Assembly (NCBI RefSeq): GCF_054482525.1
Contig: NZ_JBTHVG010000003.1
Reading direction: 5' to 3' (one strand)
Source of the DNA: a plasmid
Length of the DNA: 64,000 nt
Under the pieces are notes generated by a model. It had not been told where the DNA came from and did not search any database. It saw only the letters and a program-made list of their open reading frames with translations. Both the position numbers and the translations under genes were made by a program. Positions 1 through 5,817 of this stretch are shown here, piece by piece. Each line of letters starts with the position of its first letter. The first letter of the stretch is position 1.

Positions 1-143
1 GCTCCTCGCTGTCCATTCGCTCCCCTGGCGCGGTATGAACCGCCGCCTCATAGTGCAGTTTGATCCTGACGAGCCCAGCATGTCTGCGCCCACCTTCGCG
101 GAACCTGACCAGGGTCCGCTAGCGGGCGGCCGGAAGGTGAATG

Positions 144-983
144 CTAGGCATGATCTAACCCTCGGTCTCTGGCGTCGCGACTGCGAAATTTCGCGAGGGT
201 TTCCGAGAAGGTGATTGCGCTTCGCAGATCTCCAGGCGCGTGGGTGCGGACGTAGTCAGCGCCATTGCCGATCGCGTGAAGTTCCGCCGCAAGGCTCGCT
301 GGACCCAGATCCTTTACAGGAAGGCCAACGGTGGCGCCCAAGAAGGATTTCCGCGACACCGAGACCAATAGCGGAAGCCCCAACGCCGACTTCAGCTTTT
401 GAAGGTTCGACAGCACGTGCAGCGATGTTTCCGGTGCGGGGCTCAAGAAAAATCCCATCCCCGGATCGAGGATGAGCCGGTCGGCAGCGACCCCGCTCCG
501 TCGCAAGGCGGAAACCCGCGCCTCGAAGAACCGCACAATCTCGTCGAGCGCGTCTTCGGGTCGAAGGTGACCGGTGCGGGTGGCGATGCCATCCCGCTGC
601 GCTGAGTGCATAACCACCAGCCTGCAGTCCGCCTCAGCAATATCGGGATAGAGCGCAGGGTCAGGAAATCCTTGGATATCGTTCAGGTAGCCCACGCCGC
701 GCTTGAGCGCATAGCGCTGGGTTTCCGGTTGGAAGCTGTCGATTGAAACACGGTGCATCTGATCGGACAGGGCGTCTAAGAGCGGCGCAATACGTCTGAT
801 CTCATCGGCCGGCGATACAGGCCTCGCGTCCGGATGGCTGGCGGCCGGTCCGACATCCACGACGTCTGATCCGACTCGCAGCATTTCGATCGCCGCGGTG
901 ACAGCGCCGGCGGGGTCTAGCCGCCGGCTCTCATCGAAGAAGGAGTCCTCGGTGAGATTCAGAATGCCGAACACCGTCACCAT
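144..983 (-). CDS. sul1: Sulfonamide-resistant dihydropteroate synthase Sul1
   Basis: ORF 144..1070 contains the Sul1 sequence from internal Met ([16 protein letters not shown]...[11 protein letters not shown]); start reassigned to 983. GC-rich. Confidence 0.95.
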
Positions 984-1183
984 GGCGTCGGCCTCCGCAG
1001 CGACTTCCACGATGGGGATCGGGCGAGCAAAAAGGCAGCAATTATGAGCCCCATACCTACAAAGCCCCACGCATCAAGCTTTTGCCCATGAAGCAACCAG
1101 GCAATGGCTGTAATTATGACGACGCCGAGTCCCGACCAGACTGCATAAGCAACACCGACAGGGATGGATTTCAGAACCAGAGA
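977..1183 (-). pseudogene. qacEdelta1: qacEdelta1 3' remnant (last ~68 codons of SMR efflux gene); N-terminal part replaced by unrelated sequence
   Basis: C-terminal ...[68 protein letters not shown] matches qacEdelta1; upstream 19 residues of the ORF do not. Overlaps sul1 start as in 3'-CS. Confidence 0.8.
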
Positions 1184-1328
1184 ACATGTCATTGTACTGG
1201 AAGGCGCATTACAACTGCGGCTGGGGGATGAGTGGCACACCGTTTCTGCCGGGGAATCCCTGCGCTTCCATGCGGATATCCCGCACGCTTACGCCAATCC
1301 CGGTAAGGCCATTGTGACAGGGGTCTGA
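1164..1328 (+). other. Cupin-like C-terminal gene fragment whose last codons and stop lie inside the Tn3-family IR
   Basis: Plus frame translates ...[48 protein letters not shown], a cupin beta-barrel-like pattern; below the ORF-track size cutoff. Confidence 0.3.
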
Positions 1329-1357
1329 CGCTCAGTGGAACGAAAACTCACGTTAAG
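1320..1357. repeat. 38-bp terminal inverted repeat of a Tn3-family transposon (Tn1/Tn2/Tn3 type)
   Basis: GGGGTCTGACGCTCAGTGGAACGAAAACTCACGTTAAG read directly; abuts the 3' end of the tnpA fragment. Confidence 0.8.
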
Positions 1358-2655
1358 CAACGTTTTCTGCCTCTGACGCCTCTTTTAATGGTCTCAGATG
1401 TCCTTTGGTCACCAGTTCTGCCAGCGTGAAGGAATAATGGCCGAGCATATTGATATGTCCGTGGCAAAGCGGGGAGAGGCGTGCGATATCTTCATCATTC
1501 AGTGTTTCACCCTGCGCCCGGAGATGATCCAGGGCTGCCTGCATATAAATAGTGTTCCATAACACGACGGCGTTAGTGACCAGCCCCAGTGTGCCCAGTT
1601 GATCTTCCTGACCGTCGGTATATCGTTTTCTTATCTCACCTTTTTGACCGTGACAGATGGCTCTGGCAACGGCATGGCGACTTTCTCCCCGATTAAGCTG
1701 GGTCAGAATGCGCCGGCGGTAATCTTCATCATCAATATAATTAAGCAGATACAGCGTTTTGTTGATGCGCCCCACTTCAATGATTGCCTGAGTCAGTCCG
1801 GAAGGACGTTCACTTTTCAGCAATGAACGGACCAGCACTGAAACCTGTACTTTGCCCAGCTTCAGGGAGCCAGCGGTCCGGATCATTTCGTCCCACTGAA
1901 GGACTATTTTTCGGGGATCTGATTGCCCTCTGGCAATATCATTCAGCACGCCATAGTCGGCATCATGGTCCATTCGCCAGAAAACCGAAGCACCGGCATC
2001 AGCCAGGCGTGGAGAAAACTGGTATCCCAGCAGCCAGAAAAGGCCAAAGACAAGTTCGCTGGCACCTGCTGTATCGGTCATAATTTCGGTTGGATTCAGC
2101 CCGGTCTCCTGTTCCAGAAGACCTTCCAGCACAAAGATAGAGTCCCTCAGCGTCCCCGGTATAACGATGCCATGAAAGCCGGAATACTGATCGGACACAA
2201 AGTTGTACCAGGTGATCCCTCTGTTATTACCAAAGTATTTGCGGTTCGGTCCGGCATTGATTGTTCTGACTGGCGTAACAAAGCGCATTCCATCTGCAGA
2301 TGCCACTTCTCCTCCACCCCATATCTGTGCCAGTGGCAGCGTTGCCTGAAAATCAACCAGTCTGGCATTAGCGCTGGTGATAGTTTCAGCCCGCAGATAG
2401 TTCGCTTTTGTCCAGTTCAGCCGGTGTCGGGTCAGTGCAGGAACATTTGATCTGATCAGTGGTTCCAGACCGATATTGCAGGCTTCAGCCATCAGCACGG
2501 CGCTGATGCTGACGGGCAGATCATCAACTCTGGCACTGGCTTCACTAGCATGGAAAAACTCATCAGCAAATCCGGTATGGGCGTTAATTTCGAGCAGCAA
2601 CTCCGTTAAATCCACCGGAGGGAGTAGATCACTGATCATTTTGCTCAGTCGTTTC
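1353..2655 (-). pseudogene. tnpA: Tn3-family transposase TnpA, 3' portion only (434 codons); 5' end removed by IS26
   Basis: ORF 1353..2660 resembles the C-terminal part of Tn3-family TnpA; ends in the Tn3 IR and is interrupted by the IS26 end at 2656. Confidence 0.8.
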
Positions 2656-4183: not shown

Positions 4184-4241
4184 AAAAATCTAAATATGCT
4201 TGAACAACTTGTAACTTAAATTCATAACTGTATTTTGCCAT

Positions 4242-4286
4242 AAAAAATGACCTCCCATAAGTTAGATTTTTGGTCTAACTTATGGG
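4242..4286 (-). terminator. Rho-independent terminator for minus-strand gene 4323..4715
   Basis: 13-bp perfect IR cccataagttaga / tctaacttatggg with adjacent A-run on plus strand (U-run on minus transcript). Confidence 0.55.
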
Positions 4287-4322
4287 GGTCAGTTCATTCT
4301 ACACTTGGGCTGCATGTTTTGA

Positions 4323-4715
4323 TTAATTATCTAATATCTCCGGATCTCCTGTAAAGGAATATAAAACTGCCTGCATGTTTTTCAAATAAAATACGGTGAA
4401 TTTCCCATCATCAGCGCTATACCAATCTCTCAAAAACGGATTTGCTTCAAGCATTGCTTCCCTTGCTTCCACGGTATCATCAATTACGGCTTCGCCGGTG
4501 AGCCGAATCCATTTTCCTTTTGCCATACCTGAGACTTCCACCTTTGAATTTGCCAATAACTGCTGATAAACTTTTTTCTGATTGGTTGTACCAAGATAGA
4601 CCTTGCCATTCCTCTCCATGGCTGCATTAAACGGTCTGACCCTTGGCTGGTCTCCTTCAACGGTTGCAAAATAAAAAGTTTTTGCTTCATTTAAAAAATC
4701 AACAACTTGACTCAT
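4323..4715 (-). CDS. Small flavin-binding split-barrel (pyridoxamine 5'-phosphate oxidase-like) family protein, hypothetical
   Basis: 130-aa ORF, low GC, own terminator; family assignment from sequence pattern only. Confidence 0.45.
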   Translation of the reverse strand: MSQVVDFLNEAKTFYFATVEGDQPRVRPFNAAMERNGKVYLGTTNQKKVYQQLLANSKVEVSGMAKGKWIRLTGEAVIDDTVEAREAMLEANPFLRDWYSADDGKFTVFYLKNMQAVLYSFTGDPEILDN

Positions 4716-4997
4716 CCTTTTTTACCTCCATAAATAAATTTTTCTTTACTTTTCTTTGACCTAAATTCCACGTGCATTTTTTATTAGCTTAAAAGAACAC
4801 TATTTCACGAAGAATTTAAACTGATACTCCCACATTGTAACATTATTTACCACCACCTTTCAATCTTTTTCAATAAATTATTGATTGCAACTTTTGAGTA
4901 AAGATACTTATTAAACCCTGCAAGTTATCCACAGAGCAACACTCGATTTTCAAGATGATATCTTTATTATACCAGACATTTTTCATACACTTCCTTG

Positions 4998-5817
4998 GGC
5001 ACTGTTGCAAAGTTAGCGATGAGGCAGCCTTTTGTCTTATTCAAAGGCCTTACATTTCAAAAACTCTGCTTACCAGGCGCATTTCGCCCAGGGGATCACC
5101 ATAATAAAATGCTGAGGCCTGGCCTTTGCGTAGTGCACGCATCACCTCAATACCTTTGATGGTGGCGTAAGCCGTCTTCATGGATTTAAATCCCAGCGTG
5201 GCGTTGATTATCCGTTTCAGTTTGCCATGATCGCATTCAATCACGTTGTTCCGGTACTTAATCTGTCGGTGTTCAACGTCAGACGGGCACCGGCCTTCGC
5301 GTTTGAGCAGAGCAAGCGCGCGACCATAGGCGGGCGCTTTATCCGTGTTGATGAATCGTGGGATCTGCCACTTCTTCACGTTGTTGAGGATTTTACCCAG
5401 AAACCGGTATGCAGCTTTGCTGTTACGACGGGAGGAGAGATAAAAATCGACAGTGCGGCCCCGGCTGTCGACGGCCCGGTACAGATACGCCCAGCGGCCA
5501 TTGACCTTCACGTAGGTTTCATCCATGTGCCACGGGCAAAGATCGGAAGGGTTACGCCAGTACCAGCGCAGCCGTTTTTCCATTTCAGGCGCATAACGCT
5601 GAACCCAGCGGTAAATCGTGGAGTGATCGACATTCACTCCGCGTTCAGCCAGCATCTCCTGCAGCTCACGGTAACTGATGCCGTATTTGCAGTACCAGCG
5701 TACGGCCCACAGAATGATGTCACGCTGAAAATGCCGGCCTTTGAATGGGTTCATGTGCAGCTCCATCAGCAAAAGGGGATGATAAGTTTATCACCACCGA
5801 CTATTTGCAACAGTGCC
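4998..5817 (-). mobile_element. IS26 copy 2 (inverted relative to copy 1)
   Basis: IRs GGCACTGTTGCAAA at both ends; transposase identical to copy 1. Confidence 0.95.
5050..5754 (-). CDS. tnpA: IS26 transposase
   Basis: Identical protein to copy 1. Confidence 0.95.
   Translation of the reverse strand: MNPFKGRHFQRDIILWAVRWYCKYGISYRELQEMLAERGVNVDHSTIYRWVQRYAPEMEKRLRWYWRNPSDLCPWHMDETYVKVNGRWAYLYRAVDSRGRTVDFYLSSRRNSKAAYRFLGKILNNVKKWQIPRFINTDKAPAYGRALALLKREGRCPSDVEHRQIKYRNNVIECDHGKLKRIINATLGFKSMKTAYATIKGIEVMRALRKGQASAFYYGDPLGEMRLVSRVFEM

Follow-up and report, generated by a model that had tools for sequence, protein, structure and literature searches.

The first 5,817 positions of the plasmid DNA analyzed here (a stretch of 64,000 nucleotides, referred to below as the window) are very probably made up of mobile-element fragments accumulated in layers, a structure already catalogued and with no functional "system" in it. 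Positions 1-1319 are identical in sequence to two ISCR1 complex class 1 integrons at their right-hand end. The cupin remnant there holds a Tn2 derivative with its inverted repeat at 1320, beyond which the sequence matches plasmid pOLA52 almost throughout, up to at least 9422, and passes through the 3' part of tnpA, IS26, a small collinear tnpA fragment, a block of Gram-positive DNA, and the oqxAB-bearing Tn6010 (Table 1). Four pieces make up the block: a start-less bleO piece of pUB110 type, the end of an IS3-family element, a clostridial PNPOx ("NimC") gene, and the right end of ISEnca1. The structure is already published, the resistance mosaic is well documented, and there is little new biology in it. 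It is known as "ΔTn2-IS26-ble/blmS-orf(nimC)-ΔISEnca1-IS26(Tn6010 oqxAB)", with a 3.68-kb "deltaTn2-IS26-ble-orf-deltaISEnca1" fragment lying upstream of Tn6010 (PMC5645526, PMC7823714, PMC6387526, PMC5501952).

Table 1. Mobile-element and resistance features in the left part of the window
Feature	Position	Strand	Details
sul1, complete	144-983	-	NCBIfam Sul1, 641 bits (cut-off 600)
qacEdelta1 remnant, 3' 208 of 348 bp (60%)	977-1184	-	Intact qacEdelta1 matches end at 1184
Cupin-domain gene remnant	1185-1319	+	Pfam Cupin_2, E 2e-11
Tn2 (Tn3 family) 38-bp terminal inverted repeat, tnpA end	1320-1357	.	GGGGTCTGACGCTCAGTGGAACGAAAACTCACGTTAAG
Tn2 tnpA 3' portion, about nt 1704-3006 of the gene	1353-2655	-	NCBIfam Tn3 transposase, E 4.5e-182
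IS26 copy 1, 820 bp	2656-3475	+	14-bp inverted repeats GGCACTGTTGCAAA; no target duplication
Second Tn2 tnpA fragment, about nt 468-603	3476-3611	-	100% identity to L007 5001-5136
pUB110-type fragment: bleO minus first 13 nt (coding to 4003) and 186 bp downstream	3612-4189	+	
Left end of IS3-family insertion sequence	4190-4296	-	Inverted repeat and first 17 orfA codons
PNPOx-fold gene, 130 aa	4323-4715	-	Pfam PNPOx_N, E 1e-9
ISEnca1 right end (IS1380 family, ISEcp1-like), cut by IS26	4760-4997	-	87% identity to ISEcp1 3' end
IS26 copy 2, left arm of composite transposon Tn6010	4998-5817	-	Identical 820-bp copy
oqxA-oqxB-oqxR genes (Tn6010)	6074-11023		
IS26 copy 3	11024-11843		Identical 820-bp copy

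Recurrence of the arrangement in other plasmids

At least 143 complete plasmids, the IncHI2 plasmid pHNSHP45-2 among them, match window positions 1-6100 with 100% identity, so chance is of no concern. This recurrence also bears on whether the junctions might be assembly chimeras. Three identical 820-bp IS26 copies inside 9.2 kb are a classic source of short-read misassembly, but the same order is found across several genera in these independently sequenced plasmids and in pOLA52. An artefact is accordingly rejected, its probability being negligible.

The mosaic was first sequenced in pOLA52, an IncX1 plasmid of Escherichia coli from swine manure (Norman et al. 2008), to which window positions 1319-9422 are collinear at 99.94% identity. 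Both carry a fragmented Tn2/Tn3 with IS26-blmS-orf-deltaISEnca1-Tn6010(oqxAB), with IS26 copies in identical positions and orientations. They differ to the left of the Tn2 inverted repeat, where pOLA52 has IncX1 backbone and the window has the second 3'-conserved segment (3'-CS2) of a class 1 integron with the cupin remnant, and after the third IS26, where pOLA52 has the blaTEM-1 end of Tn2 and the window an IncHI2-type backbone. The region has likewise been described in the IncHI2 oqxAB/mcr-1 plasmids (PMC5645526), namely pHNSHP45-2 (KU341381), pHXY0908, pHK0653, and pHNYJC8. The first of these is 99.96% identical over window positions 1-11843 but lacks the 157 bp (11844-12000) adjoining the third IS26, which are common to 404 other plasmids in PLSDB. 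These 157 bp were considered as the second end of Tn2 and rejected, the sequence not being a Tn2 end.

The integron end and the Tn2 remains

At the left edge of the window orf5 begins, and the adjacent sul1 is part of a complex class 1 integron of ISCR1 type, namely of its 3'-CS2; positions 1-1319 are 100% identical to the 3'-CS2 region of a Klebsiella oxytoca plasmid. As in the 3'-conserved segment of class 1 integrons, qacEdelta1 overlaps sul1, matching positions 46-101 of the QacE profile and missing its 5' 140 bp. Two reference sequences (L005 and L006) have qacEdelta1 cut at the same point in their second, ISCR1-associated 3'-CS. The cupin reading frame spans 1164-1328, but its ATG sits in qacEdelta1-derived DNA, and the cupin DNA proper, 100% identical to both references, stops at 1319, whereas in the references it runs 48 bp further. 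Identity to pOLA52 and Tn2 starts at this very boundary (1319/1320), and the 38-bp repeat beyond it holds both the TGA stop of the cupin frame (1326-1328) and the stop of tnpA. The remnant forms the end of a variable region associated with ISCR1. Other plasmids carry it beside catA2 or dfrA3b, and judged by these identities it is interrupted here by a later Tn2 insertion.

The window thus shares with ISCR1 complex class 1 integrons (In6/In7 type, with duplicated 3'-CS) the junction of cupin remnant and 5'-truncated qacEdelta1-sul1 that is seen downstream of ISCR1-catA2 in Shewanella pSx1 and of ISCR1-dfrA3b in K. oxytoca. It differs from them in that Tn2 breaks the cupin remnant and that neither ISCR1 and the first 3'-CS nor the cassettes and intI1 still lie alongside. 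The initial annotation had recognized a rearranged integron with a qacEdelta1 remnant next to sul1 and a cupin-like fragment whose stop lies within a Tn3-family repeat. The junction is real and the stop is where it was placed; however, the description was incomplete, since two ISCR1 integrons have this junction at the boundary of their second 3'-CS, to which Tn2 has been added here, and well over the reported 3' third of qacEdelta1 survives.

The terminal repeat and a tnpA reading towards it mark the next element as a member of the Tn3 family. Its tnpA 3' portion matches positions 546-954 of the NCBIfam profile, is 99.85% identical to the Tn3-type tnpA of reference sequence L007, and abuts IS26 copy 1, in agreement with the earlier view of a fragment cut by IS26. 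The second tnpA fragment is collinear with the first, and the 1100 bp between them are deleted at IS26 copy 1. These two fragments are all that remains of Tn2 within positions 1-5817; a complete Tn2 or Tn3 with tnpA, res, tnpR, bla, second inverted repeat, and 5-bp duplication is absent, and no second Tn2 inverted repeat was found after the third IS26.

The three IS26 copies each have the 14-bp repeats and a single DDE transposase gene, the product of which matches the IS6-family model at E 3.9e-83 (278 bits against a cut-off of 125). Copies 1 and 2 are inverted relative to each other. None of the three copies in the window is flanked by an 8-bp target duplication, as had been noted before: the flanks GTCGTTTC/GCCCCAGC, CTTCCTTG/AGTTTTAT, and CCGCAGAG/ACGCAAAG differ, also when reverse complements are compared. 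Deletion or recombination mediated by IS26 would leave no such duplications, and their lack is therefore no argument against the IS26 identity of these copies.

The Gram-positive block and its start-less bleO

Between IS26 copies 1 and 2 lie 1522 bp with a GC content of 38.4%, against 51-61% in the neighbouring DNA, consisting of the second tnpA fragment and the four pieces of the block. The low-GC insert originally described is present, but its first 136 bp (56.6% GC) are Tn2 tnpA. The bleO gene, terminators, and PNPOx-like gene ascribed to it were all recovered, but the IS3-family and ISEnca1 remnants had been missed. The terminator-like hairpins lie downstream of bleO inside the pUB110-type fragment (4048-4079, + strand) and inside the IS3-family remnant (4286-4254, - strand), which is truncated at 4190.

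Homologues of the block exist in several Gram-positive bacteria. Positions 3612-4189 are 100% identical to Staphylococcus epidermidis pHD40-5_2 (L002 4001-4578), in which bleO begins at L002 3988 and aadD1 lies just upstream. Positions 4188-4759 are 98.6% identical to a Ruminococcaceae genome; the IS3-family remnant has the same 98.6% identity to Ruminococcaceae bacterium AM07-15 (L020), in which the IS3-type orfA extends further, and about 80% identity to enterococcal ISEfa10-like elements. Positions 4206-4997 are 99.6% identical to Enterococcus faecium pE211-2, which retains about 100 bp more of ISEnca1. These matches support a Gram-positive origin of the block, and the corresponding claim of the initial annotation therefore stands, as do its bleO of Gram-positive plasmid type and the absence of the aadD neighbour. 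The junction of pUB110-type and IS3-family DNA (4189/4190) was found in no Gram-positive plasmid of PLSDB, all Bacillota matches ending at 4189. There is no insertion sequence at the junction of Tn2 and bleO (3611/3612), where the overlap is only 1 bp.

The bleO product scores 297.9 bits with the BleO model NF000027 (cut-off 275), and the window shares with the aadD-bleO module of pUB110 from staphylococci and bacilli 578 bp at 100%, covering bleO codons 5-134 and the terminator. Unlike that module, it has neither aadD nor the ribosome-binding site of bleO, and the gene is short of its first 13 nt. In place of these nucleotides (GTGAGAATGTTAC) and of the upstream AAAGGGGA stands Tn2 DNA, with the loss of both the GTG and ATG starts. 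A TAG at 3611-3613 closes the frame, and the first canonical start is a TTG at codon 10. Resistance can therefore not be assumed, and the copy is probably poorly translated or untranslated, as far as can be judged from its sequence. The gene has been called "putative" (PMC7823714), and no bleomycin MIC data for it were found in the literature.

These observations bear on an alternative in which recombination mediated by IS26 placed an IS26-bounded unit, carrying a Gram-positive bleO in working form, between the integron and the Tn3 debris. Inverted IS26 copies do flank the segment without duplications, its bleO DNA is entirely of pUB110 type, and many unrelated chromosomal and plasmid sites carry the same IS26-flanked bleO/PNPOx block, which in some of them lies between direct IS26 copies. 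We nevertheless consider this unlikely. The collinear tnpA on both sides of IS26 copy 1 indicates that IS26 entered, and deleted DNA within, a pre-existing Tn2::Gram-positive block and did not deliver it; moreover, IS26 copy 2 belongs to Tn6010, and bleO has lost its starts and ribosome-binding site behind an in-frame stop. The assembly by IS26 that had been proposed thus holds to the extent that IS26 reshaped the region, as seen in the missing duplications and the tnpA deletion. It fails for a simple IS26-bounded bleO insert, the block being internal to a Tn2-derived structure identical to that of pOLA52.

The PNPOx-fold gene and ISEnca1

The PNPOx-fold gene is named "nimC" or "orf" in the literature. 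The nearest structure to its product is PDB 2ig6, a "NimC/NimA family protein" (E 4e-36) that is itself uncharacterised, and its relatives are all from Clostridia. None of the NCBIfam Nim resistance models matched at E≤0.01, the sole match being a weak one to F420-PPOX, and membership in the Nim 5-nitroimidazole resistance family was rejected on this ground. Among the longest contigs, the exact protein occurs only in IS26-flanked Gram-negative contexts.

The adjoining remnant, of which a full-length relative is named ISEnca1 by PGAP, appears as deltaISEnca1 in published maps (PMC5645526, PMC7823714). It has the features of an IS1380-family right end: an IRR at 4760-4773, identical to that of ISEcp1 (ACGTGGAATTTAGG), and an outward promoter predicted by scanning (-35 TTGAAA at 4863-4858, -10 TACAAT at 4839-4834) that points towards the PNPOx gene. 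Transposase gene, IRL, and 5-bp duplication are missing from the 238 bp left, the rest having been removed by IS26. ISEcp1-blaCTX-M units thus resemble the present arrangement in their IRR and in the conserved promoter facing the captured gene, here 44 bp past the IRR. They differ in that the element here is ISEnca1, with about 87% identity to ISEcp1, that the cargo is a clostridial PNPOx-fold gene not known to confer resistance, and that neither IRL nor target duplication is left. This promoter of ISEnca1 probably drives transcription of the PNPOx gene. The spacing between IRR and gene is 44 bp here versus about 77 bp in Ruminococcaceae bacterium AM07-15, and two differing spacings with a retained outward promoter would fit selection for expression.

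The intact and correctly oriented IRR raises another alternative, namely that ISEnca1 moved the whole Gram-positive block into tnpA by one-ended transposition in the manner of ISEcp1, with 3612 as a surrogate right end. The block lies wholly on the "downstream" side of ISEnca1, its far end is a junction within tnpA that has no IS, and another captured gene, for an MBL-fold hydrolase, stands behind ISEnca1 in other E. coli plasmids. However, the surrogate repeats are unremarkable: 3612-3625 matches the IRR at 5 of 14 positions and 4190-4203 at 6 of 14, values equalled by 30% and 12% of positions, respectively, in the same AT-rich DNA. IS26 has, furthermore, removed the IRL side and any 5-bp duplication. 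The complete or longer E. coli copies of ISEnca1 precede the hydrolase gene, a different one from that seen here, and are therefore uninformative on the lost IRL flank. We regard this route as doubtful.

Proposed order of events and significance

We infer an order of events in which no intermediate structure was recovered, beginning with the capture or activation of the PNPOx gene by ISEnca1 in Bacillota, comparable to the action of ISEcp1 on blaCTX-M. The resulting block would then have been joined to pUB110 DNA and subsequently to Tn2 tnpA, through illegitimate recombination or one-ended transposition. IS26 would next have inserted, removing the 1100 bp of tnpA and truncating ISEnca1, and the whole Tn2 derivative may have spread by Tn3-type transposition together with IS26-mediated or homologous recombination.

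In terms of function, sul1 and oqxAB are likely to be the working resistance genes behind the phenotype. Resistance-gene callers score the start-less bleO at 100% identity despite its lost start, and genotype-based calls of "bleomycin resistance" may consequently be over-calls, a concern for the many plasmids and chromosomes that bear the block. It is conceivable, if quite improbable, that the PNPOx gene is an unrecognised resistance or detoxification determinant, captured and over-expressed by ISEnca1 in gut Clostridia or Enterococcus and now riding beside oqxAB in Enterobacteriaceae; its product could, for instance, reduce nitro-heterocycles or the quinoxaline-di-N-oxides given to pigs and poultry. 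The window adds a further example of a resistance mosaic from livestock-associated plasmids that has spread widely. More generally, the block, with its DNA from pUB110, an IS3-family element, a clostridial gene, and ISEnca1, presents a clear and datable case of Bacillota DNA fixed within an enterobacterial transposon.

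Results

The DNA between the inverted IS26 copies was initially annotated as an IS26-assembled, IS26-bounded insert carrying a Gram-positive bleO gene. Both the Gram-positive origin and the involvement of IS26 are borne out, but not a simple insert with a functional bleO. The Gram-positive block at 3612-4997 comprises four pieces, namely pUB110-type DNA, an IS3-family end, a PNPOx-family gene, and the right end of ISEnca1 (see table).

Features of the IS26-bounded segment and its flanks
Feature	Coordinates	Strand	Remarks
sul1	144-983	-	NCBIfam Sul1, 641 bits (cut-off 600)
Cupin-domain ORF	1164-1328		TGA stop within 38-bp Tn3-family inverted repeat 1320-1357
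Tn3-family tnpA, 3' part	1353-2655	-	Directly adjoins IS26
IS26 pair	2656-3475; 4998-5817		Identical, inverted, 820 bp each
Left arm of Tn6010	4998-5817		Second IS26; followed by oqxA, oqxB, oqxR, and IS26 at 11024-11843
bleO ORF	within IS26-bounded segment		NF000027, 297.9 bits (cut-off 275)
pUB110-type DNA	3612-4189		First piece of Gram-positive block
IS3-family left end	4190-4296		107-bp remnant between pUB110 piece and PNPOx gene
PNPOx-family gene	4323-4715		PDB 2ig6, E 4e-36
ISEnca1 right end	4760-4997		87% identical to ISEcp1

The structure of the region is already known. Positions 1-6100 recur at 100% identity in at least 143 plasmid records. Most of these come from Salmonella, E. coli, and Klebsiella, and they include the IncHI2 mcr-1 plasmid pHNSHP45-2. 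The IncX1 plasmid pOLA52, from which oqxAB and Tn6010 were originally described, is collinear with 1319-9422 at 99.94% identity. The structure has been stated to be identical in pOLA52, pHXY0908, pHK0653, and pHNSHP45-2 (PMC5645526). A matching 3680-bp ΔTn2-IS26-ble-orf-ΔISEnca1 unit has been reported, as have the 5-bp direct repeats that flank the whole ΔTn2...ΔTn2 module in pHNEP124 (PMC7823714); nimC, blmS, IS26, and Tn3, with inverted flanking IS26 copies, have been placed upstream of Tn6010 (PMC6387526, PMC5501952).

On the integron side, sul1 and a truncated qacEdelta1 are present as annotated, but matches to intact qacEdelta1 break off at 1184, so that 208 of 348 bp (about 60%) are left rather than the 3' third. 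The cupin-like fragment ending inside a Tn3-family inverted repeat was correctly recognized; its ATG lies within qacEdelta1-derived DNA, and the true cupin DNA is 1185-1319. This DNA is found in 169 plasmid records and is uninterrupted in K. oxytoca CP020359 and Shewanella pSx1, where it is flanked by a 5'-truncated qacEdelta1-sul1 on one side and an ISCR1-associated dfrA3b or catA2 region on the other, downstream of a first, complete 3'-conserved segment (3'-CS). In both records, therefore, the qacEdelta1/cupin junction is the second 3'-CS boundary of an ISCR1 complex class 1 integron, presumably the canonical In6/In7-type boundary. The K. oxytoca record is 100% identical to 1-1319 and continues for 48 bp more before the two integrons diverge. 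The sole local event on this side is the insertion of Tn2 into the cupin remnant. Separately, the K. oxytoca (L005) and Shewanella (L006) records have in common a 183-bp cupin-gene end, identical in the two, and its junction with the second 3'-CS (4900-5183 in both), whereas their ISCR1 variable regions carry different genes, dfrA3b versus catA2. This pattern speaks for exchange of the inner part of the variable region and not for independent captures.

The tnpA fragment is cut by IS26, as first proposed. The 1522 bp between the inverted IS26 copies average 38.4% GC against 51-61% in the neighbours, in keeping with the low-GC description, but 3476-3611, immediately right of the first IS26, does not belong to a low-GC insert: this stretch has 56.6% GC and matches a different portion of the same tnpA at 100% identity. 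The fragments on either side of this IS26 share one orientation and are 1100 bp apart in an uninterrupted tnpA (L007). This is the pattern of an IS26 insertion followed by deletion of adjacent DNA, which fits the absence of target duplications: for each of the three IS26 copies in the window, the two 8-bp flanks differ, as the initial annotation had observed. Tn6010 (IS26-oqxA-oqxB-oqxR-IS26; 5818-11843), immediately to the right with directly oriented IS26 copies, likewise lacks an 8-bp duplication (CTTCCTTG versus ACGCAAAG). Beside its distal IS26, 157 bp (11844-12000) are missing in pHNSHP45-2, whereas 404 other plasmid records contain them; this fits loss of DNA next to IS26 in pHNSHP45-2 better than a gain in the window.

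The BleO-type gene is indeed of Gram-positive plasmid type, since the pUB110 piece matches S. epidermidis pHD40-5_2 at 100% identity; in that plasmid bleO is preceded by aadD1. However, identity to the staphylococcal DNA begins 13 nt into bleO, so that neither the GTG nor the ATG start is retained, nor the AAAGGGGA ribosome-binding site. Tn2 DNA contributes an in-frame TAG at 3611-3613; the first canonical start is a TTG at 3626, codon 10, and a non-canonical ATC (3617) follows a fortuitous GGGGAG by 11 nt. In bleomycin-binding-protein structures the N-terminal arm participates in dimer strand exchange, which makes loss of function of the truncated bleO plausible.

The IS3-family remnant goes without mention in the published ble-orf-ΔISEnca1 descriptions consulted. 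It shares about 80% identity with enterococcal ISEfa10-like elements, and 4188-4759 is 98.6% identical in Ruminococcaceae bacterium AM07-15, where the sequence runs on into an IS3-type orfA. Of the terminators annotated in the segment, terminator-like hairpins are seen, that at 4254-4286 sitting inside the remnant. The PNPOx-like gene was also rightly identified; its structural match is an uncharacterised "NimC/NimA family" protein, and curated Nim resistance models gave no match to its product. Its relatives among species-representative genomes are all from Bacillota (53/53), almost all Clostridia, at 45-69% amino-acid identity, with a maximum of 95% for the Ruminococcaceae genome.

The ISEnca1 remnant has a right inverted repeat (IRR) identical to that of ISEcp1 and a conserved, predicted promoter (-35 TTGAAA, -10 TACAAT) aimed at the PNPOx gene. 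E. faecium pE211-2 carries 4206-4997 at 99.6% identity between IS1216-type elements and keeps about 100 bp more of ISEnca1, so the enterobacterial and enterococcal copies descend from a longer common ancestor. In AM07-15 (QUDE01000005.1, 3754-3862), the same gene (98.6% nucleotide identity) lies beside a MobP3 relaxase gene, with a 33-bp ISEnca1 IRR-end remnant that is farther upstream, by about 33 bp, than its counterpart in the window; this spacing suggests either a second independent IS insertion upstream of the gene or a later deletion. In E. coli pYSP8-1 and pCUVET19-1426.1, from pig and dog, a near-complete ISEnca1 immediately precedes an MBL-fold metallo-hydrolase gene (5090-7253), the pair bracketed by IS26 and IS1; this gene may be another captured by ISEnca1.

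Discussion

The initial observation is thus confirmed with corrections, and its interpretation is partly supported. The comparisons establish the sequence identities, where the junctions fall, how much DNA was deleted, and that duplications are lacking. As to the order of events, we infer that ISEnca1 first became associated with the PNPOx gene in Bacillota, that the block was then joined to pUB110 DNA and Tn2 tnpA, and that IS26 insertions and deletions followed. The IS-free junction at 3611/3612 could be explained by ISEcp1-style one-ended transposition, but candidate ends resemble the IRR at background level only, and the left-inverted-repeat side of ISEnca1 is gone. The 4189/4190 junction is spanned by no Gram-positive plasmid in PLSDB. 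After this stepwise joining and IS26 remodelling, the structure would have been disseminated both in the form of a Tn2 derivative and through recombination, either IS26-mediated or homologous.

AMRFinderPlus-type annotation assigns bleO (3612-4003) 100% identity despite the missing 13 nt, starts, and ribosome-binding site, and the index lists the accompanying PNPOx protein in 4234 collection blocks. Bleomycin resistance may thus be overstated where a genotype is called "bleO-positive".
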